Positions 23,152 to 47,248 of a stretch of DNA of 64,000 nucleotides are shown here, one piece after another. This DNA is from Treponema sp. UBA4377 (GTDB lineage: Bacteria > Spirochaetota > Spirochaetia > Treponematales > Treponemataceae). The stretch lies in NCBI GenBank assembly GCA_002391235.1, contig DGRX01000013.1, positions 68,742 to 132,741 of the forward strand, read 5' to 3'. The translations under genes and the position numbers were made by a program. Under the pieces are notes generated by a model. That model had not been told where the DNA came from. It ran no database searches and was given only the letters and a program-made list of their open reading frames with translations. Position 1 is the stretch's first letter. Every line of letters starts with the position of its first letter.

Positions 23152-23166
23152 ATTTTTTCAATCTTG

Positions 23167-23237
23167 GATGATTAGCTTAGTGGTAGAGCGCTTCCTTCAC
23201 ACGGAAGAGGTCGTTGGTTCGATCCCAATATCATCCA
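23167..23237 (+). tRNA. tRNA-Val (anticodon CAC)
   Basis: Hand-folded cloverleaf: acceptor GGATGAT/ATCATCC, anticodon loop TTCACAC, T arm GTTGG-TTCGATC-CCAAT; no encoded CCA. Confidence 0.85.
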
Positions 23238-23239
23238 AA
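23212..23239 (+). repeat. attL core (3' end of tRNA-Val)
   Basis: CGTTGGTTCGATCCCAATATCATCCAAA, identical to 50965..50992. Confidence 0.85.
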
Positions 23240-23318: not shown

Positions 23319-24449
23319 ATGCGTGTGACGGAACCTTACATCATATTTCCCAGAACACTTCCTTCCGGACGTGTGGTTTATTACTACCAATACCGCGACG
23401 CTTCCGGGCGGCGCTCAAGCGCCCTTTCGACCGGAGAGACGGTCCTTTCAAAGGCGAAAAGAAAAATCCAGAAGATGTACAACGATGGCGCCTTTTCGAA
23501 GGAAATCCGTTCGGTTTTGTTTTCGGATTTTGCAAAGGGCTTTTTTGACAAAGACGGAAAGTACTTTGAATTCCAAGCCCTTACAAGCCGTCCGATTAAG
23601 GACAACACCCTTATCTTGTACCGTAAGCTTCTTGCGAACCAGCTGATTCCTTTTTTTGGTGAAAAGCAAATTGGTGACGTCAGCAAGGACGTTGTGAAGG
23701 ATTGGATCGTCTGGGCGAGTGGATTCTGGTCAGCGAAGACCGTAAACAACGCCCGTGGCGTCTTGAACATAATACTTGAAGCGGCTGTTGACAAAGAAAT
23801 CATAGACAGGAATCCTTTGGCAGGAATCAAGTATAGGCCTACTGAAAGAAAGAGCCGCAGGTTGCTTACGCCAGACGAAATTAAAGAAGTGTATTTTTCT
23901 CAGCTCTGGACTAGGGATTGTCAAAGAAAAATGTTTCTTTTGGCTGCCCTTACTGGAATGAGAATAGGCGAGGTCGCCGCTTTGCGAAAAGAGGACTTGC
24001 ACGAAAACTACATCGACGTTTCTCACACGTATTCTGACAGCTTGGGGTTGGGCAGCACAAAGACCGGCGAAAGCCGAAAGGTCCCAATCTTGGAGAATTT
24101 TGATTTCGGAGAGTCGCGGACCGAATGGGTGTTTGAGGGGCTTTCTGCAGATCGTCCTATGTTCTCGCACGCGGTATACAACACGTTCGCTAGAATCTGC
24201 GACAAGCTTGGTATAGACAGGAAAGGAAGAGGAATCACGATTCATTCGCTTCGGAACTTTTTCATTTCGTACTTGCAGGAAGAGAACGTTCCTGAAAGCA
24301 AGATAAAGGCCGTTGTGGGCCACAAGGACAAGTCTGACATGACTGAGCGCTACACCTATTGGCGGCCCGATATGTTTCCCGAAGTCTACGCCGCTCAAAA
24401 AAAGCTTTATACAGCTATAGTTGGCTCAGCTGCCCAAAAGGCAAGATAA
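23319..24449 (+). CDS. tyrosine site-specific integrase (phage-integrase family)
   Basis: 376 aa; arm-binding-type N-terminus. Catalytic pattern: R (GMRIGE), K, HSLRNFF, HKDKSDMTERYTY with the terminal Tyr. Confidence 0.9.
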   Translation: MRVTEPYIIFPRTLPSGRVVYYYQYRDASGRRSSALSTGETVLSKAKRKIQKMYNDGAFSKEIRSVLFSDFAKGFFDKDGKYFEFQALTSRPIKDNTLILYRKLLANQLIPFFGEKQIGDVSKDVVKDWIVWASGFWSAKTVNNARGVLNIILEAAVDKEIIDRNPLAGIKYRPTERKSRRLLTPDEIKEVYFSQLWTRDCQRKMFLLAALTGMRIGEVAALRKEDLHENYIDVSHTYSDSLGLGSTKTGESRKVPILENFDFGESRTEWVFEGLSADRPMFSHAVYNTFARICDKLGIDRKGRGITIHSLRNFFISYLQEENVPESKIKAVVGHKDKSDMTERYTYWRPDMFPEVYAAQKKLYTAIVGSAAQKAR

Positions 24450-24628: not shown

Positions 24629-24901
24629 ATGATGGTGGAAACTGCCCAAATGATGCCGATTACAAGGCTGCAAAAGGAATTGACCCAAACCGTAAGAAAG
24701 GTTTCCGAGAAAAACGAATCTGTATACATTCTCAAAAACAACAATATGGAGGCGGTTATTGTTCCATTCCACGAATACGAATATCTTTCCGCCTTAGAAG
24801 AGGCCTTCGAGCGGTTGGAAATCGCGGAAAACCTTGCCCCAAGAATGAAGCGCTACAACGCGGCGAAATCTGTCAGCTGGGATTCCATAAGGAAAGATTG
24901 A
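24629..24901 (+). CDS. Phd/YefM-family antitoxin
   Basis: PITRLQKELTQTVRKVSEKNESVYILKNNNMEAVIVPFHEYE is typical of Phd/YefM; its stop overlaps the toxin ATG (ATGA-type junction). Confidence 0.75.
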   Translation: MMVETAQMMPITRLQKELTQTVRKVSEKNESVYILKNNNMEAVIVPFHEYEYLSALEEAFERLEIAENLAPRMKRYNAAKSVSWDSIRKD

Positions 24902-25231
24902 TGGACAAAGAAAAAAAAAGAAGTCCGAATCAATTTCATTCCCGAAGCCGTCGAAGACTACAATAATCTTGACGGAAGCCAAAGAAAATCCGTCAACAAG
25001 GAAATTGACAAACTGAAGGCCAACCCATTCGCGGGCCGGGAGTTTGGAAACAAGGACAACGTGGATTTGACCGGCTTCTACAAAATGTACGCATGCAACA
25101 AAAGCATACGGATTGTTTACAGGCTGCTCTCCGCCGAGAAAATAGAAGTGGTGGAAATTTGGGGAATCGGAAAAAGGGACAAGCTGAAGATTTACAAGAC
25201 TGTGGGAGCGAGGGCGAACAAAGCGAAATAG
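24901..25231 (+). pseudogene. relE: RelE/ParE-family toxin gene interrupted by a frameshift in an A9 tract
   Basis: The ATG at 24901 reads MDKEKK and stops after 21 codons. The next frame from 24920 reads EVRINFIPEAVEDYNNLDGSQRKSVNKEIDKLKANPFAGRE...IRIVYRL..EKIEVVEIWGIGKRDK (RelE/ParE-like) up to the TAG at 25229. Removing one A from A9 (24911..24919) restores a single ORF. Confidence 0.7.
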
Positions 25232-25327
25232 GAAGCGGCGGATGCCATAAAAGCTGTAACGGCAAGTTATGGCTACAAGCCTGAGCGCTCTCGTCTCCGC
25301 GGACAGACGGGTGCCGCCATTGCTTCC
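25231..25327 (-). ncRNA. about 97-nt three-way-junction repeat (3WJ element), copy v1
   Basis: Minus-strand GGAAGC-AAT-GGCGG...CCGCC-GCTTCC with two internal hairpins. Minus-strand TTGACA (25361..25356), a 16-nt spacer and TACAAT (25339..25334) place +1 at about 25327. Confidence 0.5.
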
Positions 25328-25560
25328 AAGAATATTGTAGCGCAATTTGCGCGCGTGTCAATTACTCACGTTGAGTAAAAGGCTTGACGGTTGTTGCGTA
25401 TGCACTATACTTGGATTGTCGGTTACGTCAGAGATAGCCGCTGCGGCTTTTCCATATTAAAGAGAAAATCTTCCGACATTACATTGTTCGACCGTAATGC
25501 CTTTATGAAGGACGGAACCCTTGTACCTTCGGAAGATTAGTAAAAACGTAACACAAAATT

Positions 25561-25643: not shown

Positions 25644-25740
25644 GGAAGCGGCAGAAACCATAAATGCGGTGAACGCCAGATATGGCTACAAACCTGAGTT
25701 TCACGAGATATACGCTCGGGTGGGAGCTGCCATTGCTTCC
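25644..25740 (-). ncRNA. 3WJ element, copy v5
   Basis: Same architecture with GGCAG/CTGCC replacing GGCGG/CCGCC. The same TTGACA/TACAAT promoter sits immediately upstream on the minus strand. Confidence 0.5.
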
Positions 25741-25834
25741 AAGAATATTGTAGCGCAAATCGCGCGCGTGTCAATTACTCACGTTGTGTAAAAGGCTTGA
25801 TGGTTGACGCAGCGCTCTTCTTTCTTTAATTCCG

Positions 25835-26218
25835 TCATTCGCTGAGCCCCAAGCCGGTGACGTACAGAAACTTTGTCTGTCCTTCGGCGATGATTATGTC
25901 GGCGAATCCGCTCGCGGCGATTCTCGGAAGAACTCCCATGTATGAAGTCATTGCGTAAACTCTGTAAGCGCCAGCGTCGAGATAAACGTTGCTGTGCGTC
26001 ACGTCGATGTTGTGGGCTGTCCACACCTGCCTGTAGTTTTCTTTTTCCGACGGACGGCGGACGTACACGCCCCTGATGTACAAATCCTCGGCGTTGGACT
26101 CAATCACCAAAAGGCCTTGTCCATCCGGTATGCCCTGCGAGCACGAGCAAAAAACGGCCGCAAACGCCGCCGCCGCGAGCGCCGCCAAGACAAGCTTCCT
26201 GATTCGTTCAAATTTCAT
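25835..26218 (-). CDS. small lipoprotein, function unknown
   Basis: Start at MKFERIRK (GGAG 8 nt upstream), lipobox AVFCSCS. The track ORF to 26389 runs through the upstream gene end. Confidence 0.6.
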   Translation of the reverse strand: MKFERIRKLVLAALAAAAFAAVFCSCSQGIPDGQGLLVIESNAEDLYIRGVYVRRPSEKENYRQVWTAHNIDVTHSNVYLDAGAYRVYAMTSYMGVLPRIAASGFADIIIAEGQTKFLYVTGLGLSE

Positions 26219-26246
26219 AACAAATATCTCCTTAAAAAAACGCAGC

Positions 26247-27032
26247 TTAGCTTTTAAGTTCCGCAAGCTTTTCCGCGACGACGCCTTCGGTGTACAGCGG
26301 AATGTAGCGGCTTTGGTTGCGGTGGTCATAACCCCAGTTTTCGTGCCAGTGGCCGAAGAACCAGCGCTTGTAAGAAACCATTCCGTCAATTCTGTCGTTG
26401 AAGCGAACGTTGCTGTCTTCCCTAAAGGCAGCCGCGTATTCCGGGTAGTCGCAAGACGACTCTATGCAACTTATGCCGCTGAGCGGGCCGGTATGGGAAA
26501 GGACGAAGTCAAAGGCCTTTCCAAACTTTTCTATCCTAGAAATGCAGGCGTTTTCTTCTTCCGAAGTCCATTCTTCTTGAGCCCACAAGTCCTTGTCCAG
26601 CGTCCTTCTGCTTTTGTCCTGGCTTTGCGCTCCGCCCAAGACAAGAAAGTTTTTTCCTTGAATGTTGTAAATGTGGCCGCGAATCAAGTAAAAGACATTT
26701 TCGCTAACCTTGAGGACTTTGTCGCCGTACATTTCCGCTTGCGGAAGCTTTTCCAGCATATTGTAGTTGTCGTGGTTCCCCATCACGGCCAAAACCTTGA
26801 AGGGCTTTTTGTTGTACCAGTCCAAAAGGTATTTGTCGCTTTTATCCGCGGGATGAATTCCGTTTTCGTCAACAGGGCAGTCTTCCCAAGGAAGGCCGAA
26901 GTCCCCAAGGACAATGGCCTCCGTTACCTCAGAATACTTGGCGCCTTGAAGGAAGCAATAACGTCGCATCCACTTTGCCGAGAGATGGCGCATGTCGATT
27001 GTGTTGTGTGTGTCGCCCGTTATGTAAATCAT
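26247..27032 (-). CDS. calcineurin-like metallophosphoesterase
   Basis: Motifs GDTH, LGDFG, GNHD, GHWH. Confidence 0.8.
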   Translation of the reverse strand: MIYITGDTHNTIDMRHLSAKWMRRYCFLQGAKYSEVTEAIVLGDFGLPWEDCPVDENGIHPADKSDKYLLDWYNKKPFKVLAVMGNHDNYNMLEKLPQAEMYGDKVLKVSENVFYLIRGHIYNIQGKNFLVLGGAQSQDKSRRTLDKDLWAQEEWTSEEENACISRIEKFGKAFDFVLSHTGPLSGISCIESSCDYPEYAAAFREDSNVRFNDRIDGMVSYKRWFFGHWHENWGYDHRNQSRYIPLYTEGVVAEKLAELKS

Positions 27033-27676
27033 GTCGTTTTCTCCAACAGTTCCGAAAACTTCAACAACTCAAATCTATTCGTGTCAACGCAAACATTTAT
27101 GTATTGCGCGGGGTTGACCTTTTGCTTTTTCCAGTGCTTGTTGAAGTCGCTCAAAAAATAGTCCTCCGTCACAAGCTTCTCGTGCGTGTGGCCGTGAATG
27201 TTGAATAGGCCGCCGTCACTTTTTGGGTCAAGAAAAACAGGTTCGTGCGACAAGACCATGTTCCCGTATAGCAAAGGTCCCTTAAAAACCTTGTCAAAAC
27301 CTAGATGTTCAAAAAACTCGATGTAAGTTTTGAACGGCGTTTTCTTCGTCTGAAAGTCGTGGTTGCCAAGAATCAAAAGCATCTTGCGGTTTTTCTTCAT
27401 CCGCATTATGTCGTTCATGATTCTTGCCTCTTCAATGCGGAGGTTCATGAACACGTCGCCAAAATTCCAAATCAGGCAATCGTCCGGCAGAGCGTCGAAT
27501 TTCTTCAAAAGGAATTCGTTCATCTTTGCGCAGCCTTCCGGGGAAAAGTCAAACGGACGGCCGCAATACTTTATGATGTTCGTGTGGTAAAGGTGCAGGT
27601 CGCTTGTTACAAAAATCTTTTCGGGCGGATAGCCTTGCGAGAATTCTTGTGGTGTCAGAGATTGGAATTGCTGCAT
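27029..27676 (-). CDS. calcineurin-like metallophosphoesterase (paralog of 46536..47183)
   Basis: Motifs SDLHLYH, FGDVF, GNHD, HGHTH; 4-bp overlap with the downstream phosphoesterase gene. Confidence 0.8.
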   Translation of the reverse strand: MQQFQSLTPQEFSQGYPPEKIFVTSDLHLYHTNIIKYCGRPFDFSPEGCAKMNEFLLKKFDALPDDCLIWNFGDVFMNLRIEEARIMNDIMRMKKNRKMLLILGNHDFQTKKTPFKTYIEFFEHLGFDKVFKGPLLYGNMVLSHEPVFLDPKSDGGLFNIHGHTHEKLVTEDYFLSDFNKHWKKQKVNPAQYINVCVDTNRFELLKFSELLEKTT

Positions 27677-27680
27677 TTTT

Positions 27681-28592
27681 TTATGGCCCCTCGAATGTAA
27701 TATAATCCCAGTTGGGCTGGCGTTCCATCATCAAAAGAAGGCGATCAGCCAAAGTCCTGTAATACTCCGCCGCCTCTTCGTCCAACGATTCGTCCTTTGA
27801 AAATTCTTTCATTTCTGCGGCCATCTTTCTTACAGTGTCGTATGTATAAAGGTTGTAGCCCCACCAGTCAAATTCAGGTTCAGGATAATTTTTGCAGGTA
27901 TATTTAATAGAAGTGTCATAATGCGGTTTTAAAAATTGAAGATACAAATAAAACATTACGACATCTTCTTCAATTGAAATTTCTTCTTCATAACAGCAGA
28001 AACAACCCCATGATCCTTCAGAAGAGTCTTTACCCTGTTTTACAGGCATTACCCAAAAACAGGAACCAGTATTATGTCCTTCTTCCCAATATGGATCCGT
28101 GTAAGCCCTCTGAATTGTTGCATTATTTATAGCCTTTCTTAATGCAGGAAATACTTCTTTTAGATTTTCAGAAAAACGGAAAACTTCCTTATTATGACGA
28201 AGAACATGCTCAAGTGAAGTCGTAAGAACTCTATCATAGTTCTTCAAGCGAACTGCATACGGTTTATTATGCTTTTCCGCCATCAGAATGTCATGCAAAC
28301 TGCCGCCAGATTCTCCGTCCCACAACACAAGCATAAAGTCGCAAGCCTTTGCCATTTCCTCGTTTCGCTTATGACAGGCTTTATTGTGATATTTATCATA
28401 ATCAGGAAGGTATTCAACTACTGGAATATTGTTTTCAATTGCATACTCTTTCGCGATTGAATCCACTCCTCGCGCGCCGCCTTCTAGAATTGTAATATCC
28501 TTAAAACCAGACATATAAATGCATTCATTAATTTCTGAAAAAATCCATTTTTTGTCCGTAATTGTTCGGCTTCCGCAAATAAATATATTCAT
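27681..28592 (-). CDS. SLOG-domain (DUF2493/YpsA-like) protein with an unknown C-terminal domain of about 180 aa
   Basis: N-terminal ICGSR...ILEGGARGVDSIAKEYA...VLWDGES.GS is the Rossmann-like SLOG signature. The C-terminal half has no motif I recognise. Confidence 0.6.
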   Translation of the reverse strand: MNIFICGSRTITDKKWIFSEINECIYMSGFKDITILEGGARGVDSIAKEYAIENNIPVVEYLPDYDKYHNKACHKRNEEMAKACDFMLVLWDGESGGSLHDILMAEKHNKPYAVRLKNYDRVLTTSLEHVLRHNKEVFRFSENLKEVFPALRKAINNATIQRAYTDPYWEEGHNTGSCFWVMPVKQGKDSSEGSWGCFCCYEEEISIEEDVVMFYLYLQFLKPHYDTSIKYTCKNYPEPEFDWWGYNLYTYDTVRKMAAEMKEFSKDESLDEEAAEYYRTLADRLLLMMERQPNWDYITFEGP

Positions 28593-28722
28593 AAGGCCCC
28601 GTCCTTTAACGCAAGAAAGTTAAATAAGTTTTCTTGAACATTTTCCACATGCTGCAAATCCTCGTCAATCAAAAACTCGTCTGGCAGCGAGCCGCTTTTG
28701 TCTTCAAACGGAGCGGCGTATT

Positions 28723-29046
28723 TTAAGACGCAGTTTTTGGAAGAAGTTTTTTCACTTCAACTGCAAGGGCGATTCCTCGTTTGTGAAAATCACGCCAATC
28801 AAAAGTTTTGGCCAAATCTTCCGGCGTTGTTTCTCCAGATTCGCAAGGGGCAAGCGCTTGAAAGACAAATAAAGAGAGCCACTCTTTGAGTTCCGGCATA
28901 TTGAGGTCTATGTCGCGCCCCGGCAAGGTCAGATGTTCGTCGTCGCCTATGCAGAATCCCCGTTCCTCGTCGCCTTCGTTGTCGTTCCAAAACAGGGCGT
29001 TCGCGTCAGGTTCCATTTTTATCAAATATGGCTTGCATTCCTTCAT
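28723..29046 (-). CDS. hypothetical protein (possibly frameshifted at its 3' end)
   Basis: 107 aa ORF. A further 44 codons in another frame run to 28589 and end in an ATGA overlap with the SLOG gene. Confidence 0.5.
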   Translation of the reverse strand: MKECKPYLIKMEPDANALFWNDNEGDEERGFCIGDDEHLTLPGRDIDLNMPELKEWLSLFVFQALAPCESGETTPEDLAKTFDWRDFHKRGIALAVEVKKLLPKTAS

Positions 29047-29339
29047 TCAAACTCTTCCTTTTTCTCATATTCAATCGTAACGAAATCCGTGGCCAAAAGG
29101 TCGTCAACTTTGACTCCAAGAATATAGGCAAGGGCGACAAGGTTGTCAAGCGTGGGCAAGTTCCTGCCGGAGAACCAATTGTACATTGTCTGGACATAGG
29201 GAAAGCCAAGCATTGCGGCAACGCGATGAAGGGTGACGCATTTTTGTTTCATGAGACGCTTGATTTTTTTTCCAGTTCCCTCTATGCTAAGAACCGGTTT
29301 GCAAAAAACAGCTTTCATCGCTTTGTCCAACAAGCGCAT
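29043..29339 (-). CDS. XRE-family HTH transcriptional regulator
   Basis: GKKIKRLMKQKCVTLHRVAAMLGFPYVQTMYNWFSGRNLPTLDNLVALAYILGVKVDDLL; paralog of 40444..40710. Confidence 0.75.
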   Translation of the reverse strand: MRLLDKAMKAVFCKPVLSIEGTGKKIKRLMKQKCVTLHRVAAMLGFPYVQTMYNWFSGRNLPTLDNLVALAYILGVKVDDLLATDFVTIEYEKKEEFE

Positions 29340-29396: not shown

Positions 29397-30215
29397 ATGA
29401 AAGCCAAGTTTCTTGTTCCGGAGATTGACACAAAAAGATGGGCCGAAGACTTTAAGGAACAGATTCGGCTTTATGATTTAAAGTCAAAGAACTTAAAAGA
29501 CATAAGCGCGTGGCCAAATTCCGAACAAAGAATTAACAAGTTCAAAAACGGCGCGATACCTACGATAGATTCTTTTTTGGCGCTTTGCAGGTTTTTCAAC
29601 AGGCCGCCTGATGTTCTTTTACGCCCAATTCACAAATGGGTTGAGTGCGAGATTGACCGCTCGATTGACGACTTTTTGCCATTCCGGATTTTAGGACAAT
29701 ACGAAGGAACTTATTATATCGTTCCCAATTATAAAGTTTATGACAGCTGCGCCGAATTTATTCTCGGGGAAAAAATCAAGAGCCTTAAAAAAGAGCCGGA
29801 TCCCGCTCGGTATTCAGACTATCATCAGCGGGGGACCAAGTATGACTTGGACAACCGCGTCGTAGAGGGAAAAATAATTTATCATTTTCCTTCTCTGAAT
29901 GAGGAAAAAACTTCCGCCAAAATTTTTTCTATTTTGGAGAAGCGCGGCCTGTCCAACAAGCAAGTCCAAACTCTGCTAGGCTTGAGCCCCCAGTCGCTGG
30001 CAAACAGAAAAAAGGTGAGGCAGGCGTGGACAATCAAGGACATTTACAAATTGTCATGGATTTTGAACCTAAGGTTTGAAGACCTGCTGGAAATAGATTA
30101 CCTCGACAAGAAAACCACCCGAAAATCTCTTTTTGACCCGATTGTTTTCATAATGCATTATGAGCCTAGAAAGAAAAAGGCTCCCGCCAAAAAGCCCGCT
30201 CGCCACGATGATTAA
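29397..30215 (+). CDS. double-HTH protein (paralog of 39634..40422)
   Basis: N-terminal XRE-like HTH (NKFKNGAIPTIDSFLALCRFFNRPPDVLL) and a second HTH (LSNKQVQTLLGLSPQSLANRKK..IKDIYKLSWILNLRFEDLL). Confidence 0.6.
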   Translation: MKAKFLVPEIDTKRWAEDFKEQIRLYDLKSKNLKDISAWPNSEQRINKFKNGAIPTIDSFLALCRFFNRPPDVLLRPIHKWVECEIDRSIDDFLPFRILGQYEGTYYIVPNYKVYDSCAEFILGEKIKSLKKEPDPARYSDYHQRGTKYDLDNRVVEGKIIYHFPSLNEEKTSAKIFSILEKRGLSNKQVQTLLGLSPQSLANRKKVRQAWTIKDIYKLSWILNLRFEDLLEIDYLDKKTTRKSLFDPIVFIMHYEPRKKKAPAKKPARHDD

Positions 30216-30946: not shown

Positions 30947-31351
30947 TTATTCCCTTGTCCAATCCTCAACTTTTATCCAAGGAATGCGGGCAAATTCATC
31001 ATAGTTATTTGTAACGACAGTAAGATTTCTTGTCATTGCCTGGGCGGCAATTTGTATGTCGTAAGGGCCGATTGGTTTCCCTTCCTTTTCAAGGTAAGCC
31101 CTTATCAAGCCATAGGCTTCCGTGTCTTCTGTTGTAAAATCTATTATGTTGTTGAAATCGGCGCAAAAATTTAATAACGCCTGGCGGTTCTTTTCTCTGT
31201 TCTGGCTTTTAGAAGCTCCATATCCCATCTCCGCAATTGTGACAGAGGAGAGAAACAGTTCTTCGCTGTTAGATGAGAGAATTTTCTTCGTAAGATTTGG
31301 GAACTTATTCTTTATCAAGAAAATGCAGATGTTCGTGTCCAATAGGTGCAT
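30947..31351 (-). CDS. vapC: PIN-domain toxin VapC
   Basis: MHLLDTNICIFLIK... acidic PIN residues (D6, E, D, TNN); overlaps the vapB stop. Confidence 0.85.
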   Translation of the reverse strand: MHLLDTNICIFLIKNKFPNLTKKILSSNSEELFLSSVTIAEMGYGASKSQNREKNRQALLNFCADFNNIIDFTTEDTEAYGLIRAYLEKEGKPIGPYDIQIAAQAMTRNLTVVTNNYDEFARIPWIKVEDWTRE

Positions 31352-31581
31352 TAGAATTCTTCCCTTGACTCAAGCTTTGGTTGATTCCTTCCTGCTGACA
31401 TAAAATCATCCGTAAACTCCGAAAGGCTTTTCTTAAGATTTTCCCAGGGGCGATTCCGTGGATATAGAATTATTGTTGTTCCAATTTTTTTTATGAACAT
31501 TTCAGAGTGGTCAATATGATATTCCTTGGGAATTCTTACAGCCTGGCTGTTTCCGCTTGTGAATACTTTAGTAGCGTACAT
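31351..31581 (-). CDS. vapB: AbrB/SpoVT-type antitoxin VapB
   Basis: MYATKVFTSGNSQAVRIPKEY swapped-hairpin motif; start at 31581 with GGAGG upstream. Confidence 0.8.
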   Translation of the reverse strand: MYATKVFTSGNSQAVRIPKEYHIDHSEMFIKKIGTTIILYPRNRPWENLKKSLSEFTDDFMSAGRNQPKLESREEF

Positions 31582-31849: not shown

Positions 31850-31946
31850 GGAAGCGGCGGATGCCATAAAAGCTGTAACGGCAAGTTATGGCTACAAGCC
31901 TGAGCGCTCTTTTCTCCGCGGACAGGCGGGTGCCGCCATTGCTTCC
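31850..31946 (-). ncRNA. 3WJ element, copy v2 (directly 5' of TL1 on the minus strand)
   Basis: Nearly identical to v1. On the minus strand it is preceded by the hairpin CGGCAAGA-TTTTTG-TCTTGCCG plus a T run. Confidence 0.5.
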
Positions 31947-31949
31947 AAA

Positions 31950-32057
31950 AAAACGGCAAGACAAAAATCTTGCCGACGTTGCCCAAGTTAGCGGATTTCT
32001 CCGTTGTTCCCCCGGCGCCTTCCAATATAGCGCGCGTCCGCGTTTTTGTCATTAAAG
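31950..32057 (+). repeat. about 108-bp direct repeat (second copy at 32282..32389)
   Basis: AAACGGCAAGACAAAAATCTTGCCG...GCGGATTTCTCCG.TG.TCCCCCGGC..CTTCCAATATAGCGCGCGTC....TTTTTGTCATTAAAG. Confidence 0.7.
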
Positions 32058-32389: not shown

Positions 32390-32401
32390 TTCTGCTTTAA
32401 T
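32382..32401. promoter_or_regulatory. palindromic site s2 (CATTAAAG-ttctg-CTTTAAT)
   Basis: Contains the TAA stop of the ATPase gene; leftward ATGACA-N17-TATATT promoter. Confidence 0.6.
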
Positions 32402-33767
32402 GCGCGAACCGTGTTATCGTGTCTTCGATGGAATAGCCGCTGTCATTGGAATTGTTGTAAATGTCAATTAAAAAATATGAAATATCCAGCGCTGTCGTTT
32501 TTGAATCCATGTCGCATTTTCCATCGCAAAGAGTGGCAGAAAAAGCAATCTTGCCAAAATTTTCTTCTATGCAATCCGCAAGGGGCTTTGTCTCAAGTTG
32601 CCCCGAATGGTTGATTTCAAAAGCGAAAGTCTTTTTTTCTTTTCTGTCGCAAATGATTAAAATCGCGATGTCCTCATAGCCTTTGGATTTTGCCAACACT
32701 CTTGCGACGCGCCATCTGTACAGTTTTGTATATCCCAAGTCTTCGCAATAGTCGCCCTTTTTCTCCAGCATTTTGAATGCGTCCGCTATTACGAATTGTT
32801 CTAGAATTTTTTCATAAGCGCGCTCGCGGCTGTTGTTCAAACTTGCGAAGTACATTCCTGGATTTGAAAGCACCTCAAGACGATGGCAGCTTTTGTTCTC
32901 TTTTGGGTTGTCGAGGTTCACACGCAAGGTTTCTATGGGAAGTTCAAGTATCACATCCATTTCTTTTAGAAGCTTGTGAACTGTTTCATAAATCCGTTCC
33001 GAATATGAGTTGTAGAAATCGTCCAGCCCAATATTTTGAATGTAAAAATTTATAATCGTGCGAATCGCGTTTTCGGCCTCTTTTCTTTTGCAAGGATTTT
33101 TCAAATCGAGCGGGTAGCAATGCGGGCCTTTGTCGCTTTTTTCAACCGACTTTATGAAATTATCGACGATGCAAGATTCGATGTATTCTTTTGTTGACTG
33201 TTTTGTTTCAAAAGGATTTTGCTTTGACAGCGCGCATCCATGTTTGATGTAATGGTCGATGGAACTGTTGCCTCTAATTCTTGCGAATTCCGCAAACGGC
33301 ATGTATGTTGTATGAACAATTTCGATTCTGTCATACAAGCTTGAATGCGACGCAAGCGACAGCCCCAAAGACTCTGTTCCCGACACGACAATTCTGGCGT
33401 TTTTTAAGTCAACTAAATTGTCTGAAAGAACTTCCGCCAAAATTTGGAATTTGTCGGTAAGAGTTATCTCGTCAATAAAAAAATATTTTTTTCCGCTTGC
33501 GATTGACTCTCTTAAAAATTCCACAATCCGGCGAAAATTGGATTCTTTTTCACAAGTGATGAAAACGGATTTTTTTCTTTCTTCGTCTGGAATGGAAAGA
33601 GCCGCTTGCTTCATAAGCGTTGTTTTTCCTGTTCTTTTAAGCCCAAAAACGCCGCAAATTCGTTTTTGGTTTTCACTGCGCAAGTAATTAACAATCTTGG
33701 AAAGACAATCTCGCTTTTGAGGAAATTCATCTTTTATTTTGGAAATGTCAGTGGACCTAAAATCCAT
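32397..33767 (-). CDS. AAA+ ATPase (COG1373-like, probable DUF4143 C-terminal domain)
   Basis: Walker A GLKRTGKTT, Walker B FFIDEIT; 456 aa. Confidence 0.7.
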   Translation of the reverse strand: MDFRSTDISKIKDEFPQKRDCLSKIVNYLRSENQKRICGVFGLKRTGKTTLMKQAALSIPDEERKKSVFITCEKESNFRRIVEFLRESIASGKKYFFIDEITLTDKFQILAEVLSDNLVDLKNARIVVSGTESLGLSLASHSSLYDRIEIVHTTYMPFAEFARIRGNSSIDHYIKHGCALSKQNPFETKQSTKEYIESCIVDNFIKSVEKSDKGPHCYPLDLKNPCKRKEAENAIRTIINFYIQNIGLDDFYNSYSERIYETVHKLLKEMDVILELPIETLRVNLDNPKENKSCHRLEVLSNPGMYFASLNNSRERAYEKILEQFVIADAFKMLEKKGDYCEDLGYTKLYRWRVARVLAKSKGYEDIAILIICDRKEKKTFAFEINHSGQLETKPLADCIEENFGKIAFSATLCDGKCDMDSKTTALDISYFLIDIYNNSNDSGYSIEDTITRFAH

Positions 33768-33816
33768 AATTTCTTTTTGGCGGACAGGCGGGTGCCGCCA
33801 TTGCTTCCAAAAAAAT

Positions 33817-34644: not shown

Positions 34645-35595
34645 TCATTCTTCTTTTTCAAAGAACGCCTTGTAAAAGCGCGTGGCGAGCGGTTGGCCAA
34701 AGGCGTCGGCAAGTTTTTGCGTCGCGCTTTCTTGGATCCAATTTAGCTCGCCGCCGACTTGCGACTTTATGTCGTTTATTTTCTTCATCGTCTTTTTGTA
34801 GAAGCTGTTGAATTCCACCAGCGTCATCGGCTGGATGCCAAGGTTATTTGTGTCGATGATTCCAAAAACTTGATGCCGCTTTGAGTCTGTCGCTACCACG
34901 ATATTTTCGCGGCCAGTCTTCATGTCTTTGTCCGTGAGCGCGACAAAATCGCCAAGGCAATATTCTGTGTGGCCAACCACTTGCGTTTGGTAATGCGCGT
35001 CGCGCAACAGCGCCTCTGGCCGGATCCACAGCGGGCCTTGCGTGACTTCGTTTCCGCTTCCGCTAAAATATCCGTGCCAGTCCAAGAGTTCCTCAAACTC
35101 GTAGTTGAACGCAGCGTCTCCCTTTTGGAGCGAAAGCGAGCGCCAGGTCTTGTTCAAAAAGTCAATCGACCATTTGCTTGCGTTCATGTTAAAAAGTTTT
35201 AGAATTGTCGCGACCCAAGTTTTGGAAAAGCCGCCGTGCGAGAACGCCACGCCGTCCGCCTCAAAAGCCAAGTCCAATATGTCGCGCGCGGAAAGCAAAA
35301 GACTTTTTATTATGCCCGCCCTTTCGTTTTGGTGGCCGGAACAGCCAGCGCCGTAAACCGTCGCGCTTAGGTAGCTCCAGTCGTGGTTTCCCAAAAGCGC
35401 CTTTCTGCGCTCGGGGTCCTGGCGGACAAAGGCGCAAATCGCCTCAAAGTTTTCGCCTTGCTCTGGCCACTTGTTTTCCCACGCGTCAAAGTAGTCGCCC
35501 ATAAAGACAATGCGGTCGTAGGAATCTTGCGGAAAACTTTTTGCCGCCTCCCACTCGCGCGAGCCGTGAACGTCTGGAACAACTAAAACTTTCAT
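34645..35595 (-). CDS. PPP-type metallophosphoesterase (Ser/Thr phosphatase or ApaH-like) with a C-terminal extension
   Basis: Motifs PDVHG, GDYFD, GNHD, SHGG, GHTE; start at MKVLVVPDVHG directly after a TATAAT box (near-leaderless). Confidence 0.75.
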   Translation of the reverse strand: MKVLVVPDVHGSREWEAAKSFPQDSYDRIVFMGDYFDAWENKWPEQGENFEAICAFVRQDPERRKALLGNHDWSYLSATVYGAGCSGHQNERAGIIKSLLLSARDILDLAFEADGVAFSHGGFSKTWVATILKLFNMNASKWSIDFLNKTWRSLSLQKGDAAFNYEFEELLDWHGYFSGSGNEVTQGPLWIRPEALLRDAHYQTQVVGHTEYCLGDFVALTDKDMKTGRENIVVATDSKRHQVFGIIDTNNLGIQPMTLVEFNSFYKKTMKKINDIKSQVGGELNWIQESATQKLADAFGQPLATRFYKAFFEKEE

Positions 35596-35627
35596 GCGGC
35601 CATTATAGCACAAAGAGCAAGATCGCG

Positions 35628-35647
35628 CATTAAAGCGCAACTTTAAT
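35628..35647. promoter_or_regulatory. palindromic site s4 (CATTAAAG-cgcaa-CTTTAAT)
   Basis: Immediately upstream (minus strand) of the promoter of 34645..35595. Confidence 0.6.
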
Positions 35648-35678
35648 GACAATTCTGATGAACGAGAATATAATTCAA

Positions 35679-36008: not shown

Positions 36009-36124
36009 AGGTGAAATGCTTATTTCCGTAGTTTTTCTATTGAATAATGCGGTTTTAAGTAGTATATTTGGTAATAACTACGAAAACCCGTAGTTCTTAT
36101 AAATTCAATTTAGGAGAAGAAAAA

Positions 36125-36973
36125 ATGAAAAGAATTTTTTCTGTTAGACTTGCGGTTTTTGCCACAATATCATCGTTGCTTTTAGCGTCTTGCTCTTCAA
36201 CAAAGTCTATTGGGGTTAACACAAAAAAGACAGAGACCAATATAGTTGACTGGTCGAATAGGAATCTTGACGTCGTGGCCAAGCCAGAGTGGCTAAAAAA
36301 ATTGGTGGTAGGAAATTCCGATTTATTTAAAAAAGAATTTGGGGTTGAAAAGGACGCTATAGTAAAATTTGGAATCGCCGGAGCTAAGACACGTGACGCT
36401 TCGATTGCCGCTAGCCGGGTTAATTACAATGCCATGAGGGCGGAAGAGATAAAGAAAAAGGTTGTTTCGGAGGCTGCTGCAACGCTTAACAATGAAGGTT
36501 ATACAGAGGCGATAGCCAATGCGGCGTTTGTTGCTAAACTTGACTTGAGCGGGCACCAACTAGTTACACAGTTTTGGCAGAAGATTGAAAGCTATGATAA
36601 AAAGAGCGACGAAATTACAACAGAATTTATATGCTATTCTGTTTATAAAATTTCAAGAGAAGATTGGACAAAGACATTAAAGGGCTATTTATCTCAAGTA
36701 ATTCCCGCTCTACCTGATTCGCAAGCCCAGGTGAAAATGGCCCAGACAATCAAGTCTTTGTATGAAGACACTGCAAAAGAAAAAGAGATGAGCCAGCAGG
36801 CGGCTTTGGCTCAGTTCAGGGCTCAGGAAGAAGAAGCTCGCGTAAAGCAAGCCGAGGCTGCCGCGCAAGTTGCCAAGAACAATTCTGTGGCGGCTGTGGA
36901 GCAGGCGAAACGAGCGTCAAACAATGTTGATTGGGCGAGCACTCTATCGAAGGCTGCTGAAAACTTGTATTAA
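36125..36973 (+). CDS. lipoprotein (LPP20-like?)
   Basis: MKRIFSVRLAVFATISSLLLASCSS lipobox; Ala/Gln-rich coiled C-terminus. Confidence 0.6.
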   Translation: MKRIFSVRLAVFATISSLLLASCSSTKSIGVNTKKTETNIVDWSNRNLDVVAKPEWLKKLVVGNSDLFKKEFGVEKDAIVKFGIAGAKTRDASIAASRVNYNAMRAEEIKKKVVSEAAATLNNEGYTEAIANAAFVAKLDLSGHQLVTQFWQKIESYDKKSDEITTEFICYSVYKISREDWTKTLKGYLSQVIPALPDSQAQVKMAQTIKSLYEDTAKEKEMSQQAALAQFRAQEEEARVKQAEAAAQVAKNNSVAAVEQAKRASNNVDWASTLSKAAENLY

Positions 36974-36979
36974 AATAAT

Positions 36980-38008
36980 ATGGACATGAAAGATTTTAAT
37001 AAATCGCTTGCGTGCGTTTTAATTTTCATGTGCGCGTCTGGACTTTGTTTTGGAAAAAGCAAAAAAAAGGATTCCAAGGCAAAGTCCGACGCCCCGCTTT
37101 GGCTTACTGACGCGGGCCGATATTCTGTTTTTCCTGACAGCAGTTTTGTTTCTTCGTTTGCAAACGGGAGCTCCGCCGATGAAGCCAAAGAAAAGGCGTT
37201 GGCCGAAATTTCGCATGGAATTAAGACAAGCGTTTTGGCTGAAACAAAGCGACGGTATTCTATGGCGCAAGAAGGTTATTCAGCCTCGGAAAGGCTTTCT
37301 ATAGACGAAAAACAAAAGATTCAGTCTAAGAATGATCTTTACATGGCTGAATGGACAACGCCTTATTATGATTCGGCAATGGGGATGTACGCTTGTGTCG
37401 CTTACATAAACAGAAGAAAGGCTTTTGAGTATGTTCGGCCTACGCTGGACAAAGCAAAAGAGCTGTTTCCTGACGCGTATCAAAAAGCACTTTTACAAGA
37501 TGATGACTTTAAGAAAATAGTCTGCATTAAGCGGAGCCAAGACTTGTTAAAAGATTTCTATTCCGTTTATGATTTCGCGCGCTTTATACAGCCAAGCGCG
37601 GCGGAAGACTATCATGACATTGATTTGCTTTGCGGAAAGAGTTTCGCCAAGTTGAGCGAATTGAAGTCAAAGGTTGTAGTCAGTGTTCTCGTCAAAAAAG
37701 ATGCAAATGTCGAAGCAAAAGAATGCCTTAAAAAAGTTCTGAATGACGCGGGTTTTTCTGTTTCGGATTTTGATTCCAGCTATGTCGCTTTGTTGGAAAC
37801 ATCCTTTGAGATTGCAAAGAAAGAAAAGGTTTATTTATCTTATCCGGCTATTTCTGTTGAAGTGCGAAGGGTTGCTGACGGCCAGATTGTCGGTTCATAT
37901 TCCAATAAGTTGGAAAAATGCGCCGGCTTTGACTTGAATGGGGCAAAGCAAAAGGCCGAATTCGAAATAAAAAGGGATTTGGAAGAAAATTTTATAAGCA
38001 AACTGTAA
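36980..38008 (+). CDS. secreted protein, function unknown
   Basis: Signal peptide LACVLIFMCASGLCFG; same operon as the flanking lipoprotein genes. Confidence 0.6.
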   Translation: MDMKDFNKSLACVLIFMCASGLCFGKSKKKDSKAKSDAPLWLTDAGRYSVFPDSSFVSSFANGSSADEAKEKALAEISHGIKTSVLAETKRRYSMAQEGYSASERLSIDEKQKIQSKNDLYMAEWTTPYYDSAMGMYACVAYINRRKAFEYVRPTLDKAKELFPDAYQKALLQDDDFKKIVCIKRSQDLLKDFYSVYDFARFIQPSAAEDYHDIDLLCGKSFAKLSELKSKVVVSVLVKKDANVEAKECLKKVLNDAGFSVSDFDSSYVALLETSFEIAKKEKVYLSYPAISVEVRRVADGQIVGSYSNKLEKCAGFDLNGAKQKAEFEIKRDLEENFISKL

Positions 38009-38017
38009 GAGGTTTTT

Positions 38018-39529
38018 ATGAAAAAGAAGTTTTTGTTTGTCGCTTTGTTGACAGTTATGAGCGCCGCTTTTTTTTGCCAGGTCACTGACTCAAAGAAGGG
38101 GTATTTTAAGTTGGCGTGGGGATCCACGGTTGAGGATGCAAAGAAAGCTGGGTATAAATTGACAAAGCATGAGTTGAGTTCTAAGGCGCGTGAAGACTTG
38201 CTCGAACCGGTTGATTTTTATTTAGTTACCCCCCGAGAGAGTGTAGTAAAAAACCTTTCCTTTTGGTATTACGACGGAAAGCTTTTTGATGTTTTCGAAA
38301 AGGTTCAACTGCAAAATGTTCAGTCCAAAATCGAAAGCCGCTATGGAAATTTTAAGAAAAATGGAATTTCTAAGCTTAGTAATGGCGTTATGACGGATGT
38401 TGTATTAGATAATAACGGTAAGATTCTTTCTAGCTCGATTTCCATTGCGCCAAATGGATCTCAACTTGATGTTGCAATGTTCGATTGGAGTGTCGCAAAA
38501 AAAGTTTTTAAAAACTTTAGAGATTCTGCGGCGGATGTTGGCGGCAACGACAGCGAAGGTCTTGTATCAGCTCTTGAAACGCTGGCAAAAAAGCTTGTGA
38601 ATACAGGCGACGACAAAGTTTCGACATACGCGATTCTGAAGTTTTCTTCCGATTTTAACAATGTTCAGTATGAGGAATATATTACGGACATTTTAACAGA
38701 AGCTATTTTCAATACCGGTTCTGTAAAAATTATAGAACGCGCTAACCTTGAAAAAATTCTAAAAGAGCAAAAGCTTCAAGCAAGTGGTTTGATAAATGAA
38801 AAGACTGCTAAGGCGGTTGGAATGGTGTCTGGCGCGGATTACGTTTGCTACGGCTCCATAAAAGACATTGGAGCAAAATTCACGATCATTGCCCGCGTTG
38901 TTGATGTTGAGACAGGCGAAATTTGCGCGATGAGCCGTGACACAATCGAAAAGGACGAATATTTGCTTGGTTCATCTGGCGGTTCCTCTCGTTCACCTGA
39001 GACTAAATCAAATCGCGTTTCCGGCAAACCTGACAAAACAGCATGGACGTTAAAAAAATACAGAAGCGAGTTTGATGGATGCACTATTTACACATTTATT
39101 TGTCCATGCGCGGATGGCGCTTTCTTGTTCTTTGGCTATGAAAAGCGAGACAATCCATTGGAGTCTAGAGTTAGGGCTTGCCATGGAAAAATATATTCCG
39201 ATGGTTATGTTGTAGATATAAAGCTTGAAAATGGCGCCTTTGTACATAAAGAGCTTGATTATAACGGTGGAAATTCTTTTCGCTGGTATTTAAAATCAGG
39301 AACGGTAAAGGGGGCTTTCGATGCAGAACGCGTAAATATTTATAAAGAAACAGTAGAAGATGCTAGGGACTTTTACAATTATTACAAAGAAAATGATTCT
39401 ATTATTTTAAGAGAAACCAAAAGGGATTCGATCCATAGTTTCAAAACAGCAGGTTTTATGGCTTTGCTTGAGCAAAACGGGATAACCGACAAAGAGATTA
39501 TGGACGCCTTGGCAAACGAAGAGTTCTAG
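38018..39529 (+). CDS. secreted protein with a CsgG/LpoB-like domain
   Basis: VKIIERANLEKILKEQKLQASGLINEKTAKAVGMVSGADYVCYGSI resembles the CsgG/LpoB/FlgO-type fold signature. Confidence 0.55.
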   Translation: MKKKFLFVALLTVMSAAFFCQVTDSKKGYFKLAWGSTVEDAKKAGYKLTKHELSSKAREDLLEPVDFYLVTPRESVVKNLSFWYYDGKLFDVFEKVQLQNVQSKIESRYGNFKKNGISKLSNGVMTDVVLDNNGKILSSSISIAPNGSQLDVAMFDWSVAKKVFKNFRDSAADVGGNDSEGLVSALETLAKKLVNTGDDKVSTYAILKFSSDFNNVQYEEYITDILTEAIFNTGSVKIIERANLEKILKEQKLQASGLINEKTAKAVGMVSGADYVCYGSIKDIGAKFTIIARVVDVETGEICAMSRDTIEKDEYLLGSSGGSSRSPETKSNRVSGKPDKTAWTLKKYRSEFDGCTIYTFICPCADGAFLFFGYEKRDNPLESRVRACHGKIYSDGYVVDIKLENGAFVHKELDYNGGNSFRWYLKSGTVKGAFDAERVNIYKETVEDARDFYNYYKENDSIILRETKRDSIHSFKTAGFMALLEQNGITDKEIMDALANEEF

Positions 39530-39633: not shown

Positions 39634-40422
39634 ATGAGCGTAAAATTTCTTGTGCCGGAAATTAACAAAAAAAGGTGGGCCGCTGAGTTCAAGAAAAGAA
39701 TCCGTTCTCGCAAATTAAAGTCAAAGGACTTGTGCGACATTGGCGCGGAAACAAATTACGAGCAGAAAATTAATAAATATAAAAACGGCGCGATACCCTC
39801 AATAGACATCTTTTTGACTTTTTGCAGGTTTTTTAATCTTCCGCCGGATTCATTTTTGTTCGCAAAGCCTAAATGGGTGGAATGTGACATCGCCTTTGGG
39901 AACATAGGCATTTCATTAAATCGATGGCTGGGATGGTTGGGCGATGTTTTCTATATAATTCCATTTAATGAAAATAAAAACGAAGACAAAAAGAGTCGTG
40001 GCGGCGTTTCCACTTATAAAGTCACTCTCTTTGACAAAGAGCCAAGTCCCTCAAAATTTTCGACTTTTCATCTTTCTGGAACGGAATATGACTTAAAAGA
40101 GCGCGTTAAAGATGGAAAAGTTATTTATCGATTTCCTCATGTGAACAACGAAAGAACCTCTAAAAAAATTTTCTCGCTTTTGAAAAAATACAAGCTTTCA
40201 AACAAGCAAATACAAGCCTTGCTGGGCTTAAGCTGCCAGTCTCTGACAAACAGAAAAAGGGAAATCCAGTCTTGGACAACCCAAGACATTTACAAATTGT
40301 CCTGGGTTTTAAATAAGCCTTTTGAAAGTCTTCTTGTAATTGATTACAGGGAAGAAACCCGCGAAGCGCTTTTTGATCCAATTGTTTTCTTAAGGGAGTG
40401 CTTGCGCGATGCCTATCACTAA
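39634..40422 (+). CDS. double-HTH protein (paralog of 29397..30215)
   Basis: MSVKFLVPEINKKRWAAEFKK.. aligns by eye with MKAKFLVPEIDTKRWAEDFKE..; it has the same two HTH segments. Confidence 0.6.
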   Translation: MSVKFLVPEINKKRWAAEFKKRIRSRKLKSKDLCDIGAETNYEQKINKYKNGAIPSIDIFLTFCRFFNLPPDSFLFAKPKWVECDIAFGNIGISLNRWLGWLGDVFYIIPFNENKNEDKKSRGGVSTYKVTLFDKEPSPSKFSTFHLSGTEYDLKERVKDGKVIYRFPHVNNERTSKKIFSLLKKYKLSNKQIQALLGLSCQSLTNRKREIQSWTTQDIYKLSWVLNKPFESLLVIDYREETREALFDPIVFLRECLRDAYH

Positions 40423-40443: not shown

Positions 40444-40710
40444 TCATGCTTCTTCGTATTCAAAATCAACGGTTCCTTTGGCGACAAGATCGTCCATTTT
40501 TACGCCAAGGATGGACTCCAGAGCCAAAAGGTTGTCCAAAGAAGGCATGTTTTTTCCGGCGAACCAATTGTAAATAGTTTGAACGTAAGGAAAGCCAAGC
40601 CTGGCTTGAACTTGTCTTGGCGTAATTCCTTTTTGTTCCATAACCGTCTTGATCTTTCGTCCTGTTCCCTTCATGTCTGGAACGGCCTTTATATAAGATG
40701 ATTTAATCAT
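40444..40710 (-). CDS. XRE-family HTH transcriptional regulator (paralog of 29043..29339)
   Basis: GRKIKTVMEQKGITPRQVQARLGFPYVQTIYNWFAGKNMPSLDNLLALESILGVKMDDLV. Confidence 0.75.
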   Translation of the reverse strand: MIKSSYIKAVPDMKGTGRKIKTVMEQKGITPRQVQARLGFPYVQTIYNWFAGKNMPSLDNLLALESILGVKMDDLVAKGTVDFEYEEA

Positions 40711-44691: not shown

Positions 44692-45096
44692 TCAAGCGAC
44701 TTGGCAAAGTTTTTTAAGTTCCTTGCTAGTCCAAGCCATAATGGTGTTTAGGCTCTTTAAAGCCTTTTTAGTTTTTGCCAAAGAGCTTTTACCGCCGCCT
44801 GGGTAGATTGAGTCCGGGCCGTATGCATTCAAGTCGGCGCAAGCCGCAAGAACTTTTGCCGGGACAGTGGAACGCTTCGCCCGCAGTTTTATTAAGCGCG
44901 ACAAGTCATGGCTTTCGCCAAATTTTATTCCGAAAGCGGTTAGCAAGGCTTTTAAATGTTTTTCCGCGGCTTGCTGACAATCAAAGCATATTATCTTCAA
45001 TGGAGGCGGAGTCATGCTTTGAAAAAGATGGAGCGCGCTGTCATAGTCGCGTTTTGCGTATTCCAACCATTCCTTTACATGCGTTTCGGCTTTCAT
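44692..45096 (-). CDS. HEPN-domain protein (orphan; no adjacent nucleotidyltransferase gene)
   Basis: WLEYAKRDYDSALHL...QQAAEKHLKALL...ESHDLSRL is typical of the HEPN partner of MNT-HEPN pairs. Confidence 0.65.
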   Translation of the reverse strand: MKAETHVKEWLEYAKRDYDSALHLFQSMTPPPLKIICFDCQQAAEKHLKALLTAFGIKFGESHDLSRLIKLRAKRSTVPAKVLAACADLNAYGPDSIYPGGGKSSLAKTKKALKSLNTIMAWTSKELKKLCQVA

Positions 45097-47238: not shown

Positions 47239-47248
47239 GAAAAAAAAC

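Follow-up and report, generated by a model that had tools for sequence, protein, structure and literature searches.

A SLOG protein coupled to a calcineurin-like phosphoesterase in a tRNA-targeting integrative island of Treponema

A compact minus-strand operon of the gut bacterium Treponema sp. UBA4377, at positions 25835 to 29339 of a 64,000-nucleotide stretch (contig DGRX01000013.1, positions 68,742 to 132,741; hereafter the window), encodes an XRE-family regulator, an acidic protein, a SLOG protein, two calcineurin-like metallophosphoesterases (MPE1 and MPE2) and a lipoprotein. Comparison with related loci points to the coupling of the SLOG gene with a phosphoesterase gene, above all MPE1, as the durable link in this arrangement. 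We tentatively favor, at something short of even likelihood, a reading in which this SLOG–MPE1 core acts on nucleic-acid ends as part of an XRE-controlled accessory module. The SLOG domain would hold single-stranded RNA or DNA, or a terminal nucleotide, and the binuclear-metal phosphoesterases would remove or open phosphate-bearing ends such as 2',3'-cyclic phosphates, 3'-phosphates or short overhangs. The conserved core consists of SLOG and an aq_1665/PdeM-like MPE1, to which this lineage adds the acidic 152-amino-acid (aa) protein (broken here), MPE2 and the lipoprotein. The operon as a whole would belong to a pool of RNA-repair and conflict genes circulating in Treponema mobile islands that are rich in RNase toxins.

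All six minus-strand open reading frames (ORFs) are confirmed at the coordinates first given, and Pfam matches, motifs and translation bear out the XRE, SLOG/DUF2493-like, calcineurin-like phosphoesterase (both) and lipoprotein assignments of the initial annotation. In order of transcription, the genes are as follows.

29043..29339, minus strand: XRE-family helix-turn-helix regulator, first operon gene (HTH_26 1.6e-5, HTH_3 1.9e-4)
28593..29046, minus strand: u152, broken; ORF 28723-29046 (u107) encodes 107 aa, and 28593-28722 is the dead 3' part
27681..28592, minus strand: SLOG, 303 aa, with a YAcAr/DUF2493 N-domain and an uncatalogued, acidic C-domain
27029..27676, minus strand: MPE1, 215-aa calcineurin-like phosphoesterase of aq_1665 type (PF00149 7.3e-9, phrog_547 2.1e-34)
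26247..27032, minus strand: MPE2, 261-aa calcineurin-like phosphoesterase (PF00149 2.1e-8, phrog_1649 1.6e-27)
25835..26218, minus strand: lipoprotein, 127 aa, last operon gene in the lineage of the window

The tight packing originally described holds for three junctions of 4 bp (overlaps of XRE with u107 and of MPE1 with MPE2, and a gap between SLOG and MPE1) and for the 28-bp spacer between MPE2 and the lipoprotein gene, but not for the u107 ORF and the SLOG gene, which lie 130 bp apart (28723 to 28592). What had been read as a 107-aa protein is a frameshifted 152-aa gene, and the 130-bp gap is its dead tail. Homologues of u107 are longer, at 142-170 aa, and DNA alignment with three related loci (L007, L002 and L006) shows that one A is missing from the A-run at 28734-28738. 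Restoration of this base yields a 152-aa frame with a stop codon that overlaps the SLOG start as ATGA, so that all five genes are translationally coupled when intact. In intact relatives, all five are joined via 4-bp overlaps or gaps. A contig from an independent sequencing run in a different study (X2) has the same short A-run as the window, and a contig from another run (X10) carries the extra base; a third (X1) shows no difference from the window but may have supplied its DNA. The u152 protein is acidic, with an isoelectric point (pI) of 4.5, and has no family in Pfam or NCBIfam. In the protein atlas, u107 reaches a top score of 0.88, to an unnamed cluster.

Conservation was assessed by scanning one genome per species, which gave 24 loci that encode a SLOG relative; their neighbors were identified by tblastn with the window proteins and by clustering. 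Relatives are labelled Treponema. All six genes occur together at only three of the 24 loci (L002, L006 and L007), which are near-identical, with SLOG identities of 83-97%. L005 carries the set without MPE1, and L003 and L004, at 87% SLOG identity, contain none of the operon partners. The combination of SLOG with phosphoesterases proposed in the initial annotation is thus a real link in related genomes, but neither the five-gene nor the six-gene set is conserved as a unit: synteny extends to the SLOG–MPE1 core, and the whole set is syntenic only in near-identical relatives.

MPE1 is found within the locus in 11 of the 24 cases, and in seven of the 24 it is the immediate same-strand neighbor of SLOG, in either gene order, the two genes overlapping or being separated by a few bases. 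It lies downstream in L002, L006 and L007 and upstream, with a 4-bp overlap, in L010, L011, L021 and L023. The adjacency is retained at 57-61% SLOG identity over the matched segment, and L021 and L023 encode short SLOG forms that lack the C-domain and still adjoin MPE1. In L008, SLOG is followed by an unrelated phosphoesterase and then by MPE1. When all subfamilies (MPE1, MPE2, c28 and c27) are counted, 14 of the 24 loci have a phosphoesterase no more than 4 kb from SLOG. The gene for the 152-aa protein is directly upstream of SLOG at six loci, including L014 and L015 at 47% identity. MPE2 and the lipoprotein are a lineage-specific addition, because MPE2 mostly occurs elsewhere without partners. 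Its family is present in 28 of 301 family genomes; it has 29 places outside this genome, and at 25 of them the nearest 1.5 kb contain none of the operon partners. L034, L035 and L036 do have a SLOG gene, and in two further genomes (L035 and L036) it adjoins the MPE2-family gene. The lipoprotein, with a start at 26218, a signal peptide and a lipobox Cys read off the translation, is without a match in a Pfam scan and by tblastn co-occurs only with MPE2 among the related loci (L002, L005, L006 and L007).

Residues 1-68 of the SLOG protein match PF10686 (YAcAr) over profile positions 1-66 of 66, at 49.5 bits against a cut-off of 28.2, and the protein matches phrog_289 at 1.8e-24. The N-domain comprises residues 1 to ~138, and the C-domain, of ~160 aa, comprises residues ~140-303 (DNA 27684-28175). 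In an AF2 model of the whole protein (pLDDT 92.3, pTM 0.86), the N-domain is predicted to have the Rossmann-like SLOG fold, as a member of YAcAr/DUF2493. Its closest structural match is YpsA (2nx2; Z 13.1, root-mean-square deviation (rmsd) 2.4, 117 residues aligned), followed by ShosA (Z 11.6) and DprA (Z 11.1), proteins of the same fold class that align over 116-117 residues. The SLOG domain of ThsA matches further down (Z 8.7 and 8.1), and LOG and the MoCo carrier protein match as well. Likeness to DprA at the sequence level is confined to 55 of 212 profile positions (PF02481 positions 48-102, 30.0 bits against a cut-off of 29.6). The SLOG profile has no match among PDB sequences. The search with this protein returned 45 clusters, the most distant match of which (P0045) is a fusion of YAcAr with an HD phosphohydrolase, which unites this kind of pairing in a single polypeptide.

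Phage members of YAcAr/DUF2493 are, in the available text of two studies, mostly stand-alone proteins of ~130 aa or fusions to helicase, Macro, NADAR or Nudix domains (PMC7824862, 10.1101/671271). The Treponema protein shares with them its N-terminal ~120 residues, which score above the Pfam cut-off, and the SLOG Rossmann-like fold. It differs in its 160-aa acidic C-domain, in its chromosomal, island-borne location and in its restriction to Treponema-type genomes. A literature search found no biochemical data on YAcAr/DUF2493, a family whose genes rank with the most common accessory genes that still lack an explanation in phages and mobile elements.

The initial annotation regarded the C-terminal domain as uncharacterized, an assessment that stands: it belongs to no Pfam family, and Foldseek searches of the PDB and of BFVD each gave 0 matches at E <= 0.001. 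The domain is acidic (pI 4.5). HMMER searches over 1.84 billion representatives recovered 112 relatives at E <= 1e-3, either free-standing at 140-200 aa or as the C-terminus of 350-415-aa proteins. None of 30 relatives scanned scores above a Pfam threshold, and no family is matched by more than two of 52 aligned members. A PDB-wide fold search with a model of the C-domain only (pLDDT 93.4) returned just two of 48,161 chains at Z >= 5, DMP12 (3w1o; Z 5.5, rmsd 3.7, 97 aligned) and DapD (Z 5.3), with a CdiI immunity protein at Z 4.6; unmatched models typically reach Z 7-8 in this search, and the top matches of the C-domain fall below that level. In the protein atlas the top score is 0.89, to unnamed clusters, and the nearest named entry is DMP12 at 0.86, where the threshold for a lead is 0.9. 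Assignment as a DMP12-type "DNA mimic" was rejected, as these are two weak pointers only and 0 of the 52 aligned members match the DMP12 Pfam model. Within the Bacilli-type class, only 4 of 399 scored genomes contain a C-domain match, and the neighbors of the domain outside Treponema share no common theme. The C-domain is, then, a widespread domain without a Pfam model or recognizable fold relative, found alone or C-terminally in Bacillota proteins of ~400 aa.

Both phosphoesterases score above the PF00149 cut-off of 21.5 bits (MPE1 36.8, MPE2 35.3), with D-x-H, GD, GNHD and GHxH metal-binding motifs intact; in MPE2 these are D7-x-H9, GD44, GNHD85-88 and GHWH227-230. Among 36 sequences of the MPE1 family, D26, H28, N105, H106, H144, H163 and H165 are fully conserved and D74 almost so. 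The MPE1 family profile matches aq_1665 of Aquifex (1xm7) over its full length at 3.3e-16, and matches the Pseudomonas putida nuclease MPE (6nvo), its closest characterized relative by profile, weakly, at 8.7e-4 over half of the protein. PdeM (TIGR04123) is the best NCBIfam model for MPE1, at 33.4 bits against a cut-off of 150. MPE1 has the metal-binding motifs of the aq_1665/PdeM/nuclease MPE clade but differs from PdeM in context, as it lies in no operon with an Lhr helicase, ligase or exonuclease and instead has SLOG and MPE2 as neighbors. In a PDB sequence search, MPE2 gave no match and MPE1 alone only a chance-level one. The Treponema family of MPE1 is large, with 146 clusters. The phage relatives of MPE2 come mostly from Streptomyces phages (125 of 144 records), and those in IMG/VR are only 23-24% identical. 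Complex prediction for SLOG with MPE1 gave a score of 0.00, which is no answer and is used neither way. Of 30 MPE2-family places in family genomes (L034-L062), 10 have a match interrupted by in-frame stop codons, which suggests that genes of this family decay often. Separately, the T5-like Salmonella phage vB_SenS_S124 (L032) has, at 4135-5519, a Ser/Thr phosphatase gene whose stop codon overlaps the start codon of the MPE1-like phosphoesterase gene directly after it. Such T5-like phages resemble the operon in having two calcineurin-like enzymes in tandem, the second an MPE1 homologue at 30% identity; they differ in that the first phage gene is unrelated to MPE2 (BLASTP E 0.12) and that SLOG genes are absent within 5 kb.

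Both phosphoesterases and the SLOG N-domain are ordinary members of catalogued, uncharacterized families. What appears, in the literature searched, to be undescribed is the C-domain family, the fusion of SLOG with this domain, and the recurrent coupling of the protein to phosphoesterase and RNA-repair genes in Treponema islands.

Genes of RNA-repair families lie within 4 kb of SLOG at seven of the 24 loci. These encode RtcB in L017 and L020 (order RtcB-DUF4299-SLOG-unknown-radical SAM), an RNA_ligase (PF09414) in L019, RlaP in L003 and L004 (order AAA-SLOG-RlaP) and HAD_SAK_2 in L002 and L006. RNA-repair operons of the RtcB/RlaP/HAD-SAK type were reportedly described by Burroughs and Aravind in 2016. 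SLOG-family members stand inside such operons in L017 and L020 (RtcB) and in L003 and L004 (RlaP), whereas the window operon lacks a ligase or nucleotidyltransferase. WYL/WCX regulators are also among the neighbors of the SLOG family. The RtcB, RNA ligase, RlaP and HAD-SAK neighbors point to nucleic-acid end processing at least as much as to nucleotide signaling.

End processing is favored because these neighbors coincide with the DprA/ShosA-like fold of the N-domain, the affinity of MPE1 to a single-stranded DNA nuclease, and the RNase-type toxins of the island (VapC PIN, BrnT and HEPN). In the available parts of the published accounts, ShosA binds single-stranded DNA (PMC12961424, PMC11961720), and the P. 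putida MPE is a single-stranded DNA endonuclease that requires His81 and His113 for nuclease activity (PMC7826289). Several points weigh against this assignment. Adjacency to a phosphoesterase is only modestly above chance, since phosphoesterase genes are very dense in the islands; translational coupling retained in both gene orders is the stronger argument. With its second gene frameshifted, the operon may be undergoing decay in this strain. No RtcB, RlaP or HAD_SAK_2 was found in this genome (90.5% complete; PF09414 was not searched there), which would leave an end-healing module here without any recognized enzyme to seal the ends. Neither PdeM (33 bits against 150) nor nuclease MPE (E 8.7e-4 over half of the protein) is more than a weak match, and YAcAr domains are predicted, in the available portion of one survey, to serve the chemistry of NAD+/ADP-ribose derivatives rather than nucleic-acid binding (PMC7824862).

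That prediction, together with the absence of RtcB, RlaP and HAD_SAK_2 here, keeps alive a second possibility, which we regard as doubtful: that a cyclic nucleotide, or one derived from NAD+/ADP-ribose, is bound or made by the YAcAr SLOG domain and destroyed or converted by the phosphoesterases, the operon serving either as a defense system of the island or as a counter-defense module that shields the mobile element. Phage calcineurin-like phosphodiesterases are predicted to degrade immune nucleotide signals in the part of the same survey available (PMC7824862), and the ThsA SLOG domain, solved with 3'cADPR bound, is a precedent for a SLOG domain that senses a nucleotide signal, but ThsA ranks under YpsA, ShosA and DprA. 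A NADAR gene lies directly upstream of a C-domain protein in L025, and a MazG gene is 3.5 kb from the operon in L002; the NADAR neighbor is a single case, however, and the other two Bacilli loci have no such context. Deletion of the phage Smf/DprA-like ORF83 lowers infectivity on AVAST type III, according to the accessible part of a preprint (10.1101/2024.04.14.589459), and the island is rich in toxin-antitoxin and candidate defense genes, among them an AAA_14 ATPase (PDC-S01 2.1e-13). Against signaling, no TIR, SIR2, CD-NTase, cyclase, Macro, NADAR or Nudix gene is found in or beside the operon, and PADLOC reports no system. Thoeris in particular finds no counterpart beyond the common SLOG fold, as there is no SIR2 or TIR in the operon or neighboring ORFs scanned, no ThsB neighbor and no PADLOC Thoeris match. 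The initial annotation had recognized no named defense system with this gene combination, and the PADLOC check agrees, with only weak domain-level matches (ShosA 3.1e-6, PsyrA 3.4e-4, PDC-S10 ~1e-4).

The genes might also have no joint function and be separate mobile cargo, juxtaposed by recombination between island repeats and shared through descent of the same recent island. The whole set is confined to three loci with SLOG identities of at least 83%, and L003 and L004 lack the partners at 87%; MPE2 is alone in 25 of its 29 other places, a paralogue of MPE1 stands alone elsewhere in the island (66.5% identity), the island holds four of the nine phosphoesterase genes of the genome, and island-specific repeats flank gene modules. 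Independent cargo is nonetheless unlikely, given the co-translation implied by the 4-bp overlaps and gaps, the SLOG–MPE1 adjacency in both orders at 57-61% SLOG identity, the acidic protein directly upstream of SLOG even at 47% identity (L014 and L015), and the existence of a YAcAr-HD fusion. A more elaborate proposal, distinctly unlikely in our estimate, has the mobile islands of spirochaetes carry a new conflict system of two parts, in which SLOG, with its acidic C-domain, is the sensor or gate and an interchangeable metallophosphoesterase the effector; nucleic-acid mimics or inhibitors, in the form of the C-domain and the likewise acidic 152-aa protein, would restrain the nuclease or phosphodiesterase until an invader is sensed. 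Its basis is the occurrence of four phosphoesterase subfamilies beside SLOG and of an HD hydrolase fused to a related SLOG domain. Very improbable is a toxin-antitoxin-like pair in which a toxic MPE1 is counteracted by SLOG, through its acidic C-domain or ShosA-like DNA binding, under control of the XRE regulator. ShosA is both the second-best structural match and the best PADLOC match, the island is full of toxin-antitoxin pairs, and the C-domain and u152 protein are strongly acidic (pI 4.5). The ShosA match, though, spans 55 residues only, no ShosT or other PRTase is matched among the operon proteins, whose partners here are metallophosphoesterases, and MPE1-family genes exist without a SLOG neighbor (MPE4 in this island; 146 MPE1 clusters against 45 SLOG clusters). 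The short SLOG forms beside MPE1 in L021 and L023, without a C-domain, likewise disfavor such a pair. Least probable of all is a remnant of prophage housekeeping that combines a NinI-like phosphatase with DprA-like recombination functions. The matches to phrog_289, phrog_547 and phrog_1649, the 325, 642 and 144 phage records matched by SLOG, MPE1 and MPE2, respectively, and the phosphatase–phosphoesterase tandem of the T5-like phage are in line with a phage origin. However, 0 phage records cover 80% of the SLOG protein, and IMG/VR viral contigs yielded no SLOG-family relative (133 candidate stretches, 0 confirmed). The island ORFs scanned include no phage structural, packaging, replication or conjugation gene, and the relaxases encoded in related loci make the islands look mobilizable rather than prophage.

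The Treponema family offers a handle on SLOG function, because its members are repeatedly coupled to catalytically intact phosphoesterases, by adjacency in both gene orders and, in a relative, by fusion to an HD hydrolase, and lie in operons with RNA ligases. These associations restrict the chemistry to be expected to nucleic-acid ends that bear phosphate or to nucleotides that contain a phosphodiester. If the operon were only cargo, it would still show that the "five-gene system" is not a conserved unit.

The operon is probably repressed by its own XRE protein, which also matches phage repressor PHROGs. The only good promoter-like site ahead of it, ATGACA-18-TAAAAT at 29367-29338, places the annotated XRE ATG (29339) within the -10 element. 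Homologue matches start from residue 8 or 14, and translation may in fact begin at Met8 (29318). Another strong promoter-like site, TTGACA-17-TATATT at 29149-29121, lies inside the XRE gene and upstream of the broken second gene. Divergent from the operon is a gene for a 272-aa helix-turn-helix protein (HTH272; 29397..30215, plus strand; HTH_3 1.8e-7), which likewise adjoins the XRE gene in divergent orientation in L002, L005 and L007. A second HTH272/XRE pair occurs in the island at 39634-40422 (plus) and 40444-40710 (minus), with 54% and 57% identity; this pair is convergent, not divergent, and the same convergent form is found in L005 and L011.

The operon sits within a tRNA-targeting integrative island of 27.8 kb, with an integrase beside a tRNA-Val gene whose 3' end recurs at the opposite boundary. 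The island is bounded by 27-bp direct repeats that are exact (two matches, compared with 0 in 100 shuffles). Together with the Phd, VapBC, BrnTA and HEPN genes, these features uphold the original placement of one operon in a toxin-antitoxin-rich integrative island. The main features, apart from the operon, are listed below.

23165-23238, plus strand: tRNA-Val (CAC) (ARAGORN; Rfam tRNA 68.8 bits)
23213-23239: left direct repeat (attL), the 3' 27 nucleotides of tRNA-Val
23319..24449, plus strand: tyrosine integrase of the island (PF00589 2.4e-14)
24629-25231: Phd-type antitoxin, then a 56-aa ORF without a family
30947-31560: VapC (PIN) with an AbrB/MazE-type partner (VapBC)
32397-33767: AAA_14/nSTAND ATPase (PADLOC PDC-S01 2.1e-13)
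34645-35652: MPE3, phosphoesterase of 335 aa
42447-43008: BrnT/BrnA
44692-45096: HEPN protein
46536-47363: MPE4, solo paralogue of MPE1 at 66.5% identity
50966..50992, plus strand: right direct repeat (attR), identical to the tRNA-Val 3' end

The island also encodes several XRE regulators and, in 1% of the genome, holds four of its nine PF00149 genes. An Rfam scan of the island found two tRNAs only. Run records place this DNA in ruminant gut metagenomes. Three RNA runs (X18-X20) contained only 0.10, 0.09 and 0.00 of the words sampled. A plus-strand block of three genes at 36068-39529 (301, 342 and 503 aa, the last with CsgG- and LpoB-like lipoprotein domains) is possibly an envelope module of the island.

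Two repeat families are specific to the island. The palindrome CATTAAAG-N5-CTTTAATG has 18 copies at up to 2 mismatches, against 0.04 expected, between 32050 and 49965 of the window, all in the island; genome-wide, at up to 1 mismatch, its 17 sites are all within this island. By our reading, GCGCTATAAT -10 boxes directed toward the adjacent gene follow ~42 nucleotides downstream of its center, and the palindrome looks like an operator-promoter cassette common to most island modules, the operon studied here not among them. The second family is a repeat of ~100 nucleotides with conserved ends and a variable center, of which there are seven copies genome-wide, all in the island and in one orientation.

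25231-25343: ~100-nucleotide repeat copy
25644-25756: ~100-nucleotide repeat copy
31850-31962: ~100-nucleotide repeat copy
33746-33812: ~100-nucleotide repeat copy
46004-46110: ~100-nucleotide repeat copy
47249-47361: ~100-nucleotide repeat copy
49815-49927: ~100-nucleotide repeat copy

These repeats could be attC-like recombination sites or a small RNA. A closing stem is predicted, with seven pairs that carry changes on both sides; Rfam gave no match for the repeat, and the AAC/GTT (R''/R') end boxes of attC were not seen in it by eye. The island modules carry their own promoters. The island integrase was ruled out as an integron integrase, as TIGR02249 is absent from its NCBIfam matches. A true integron integrase is encoded outside the window, on contig C1 at 7888-8823 (TIGR02249 410.8 bits, cut-off 265), and indicates an integron elsewhere in the genome; neither island repeat family is found near it. 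Within the island, the ~100-nucleotide repeats flank modules of one gene each (the AAA ATPase; the paralogue of MPE1) and a 6.1-kb block in which the operon lies together with HTH272 and VapBC, and the copies at 25231-25343 and 25644-25756 come after a promoter-like TTGACA-16-TACAAT site.

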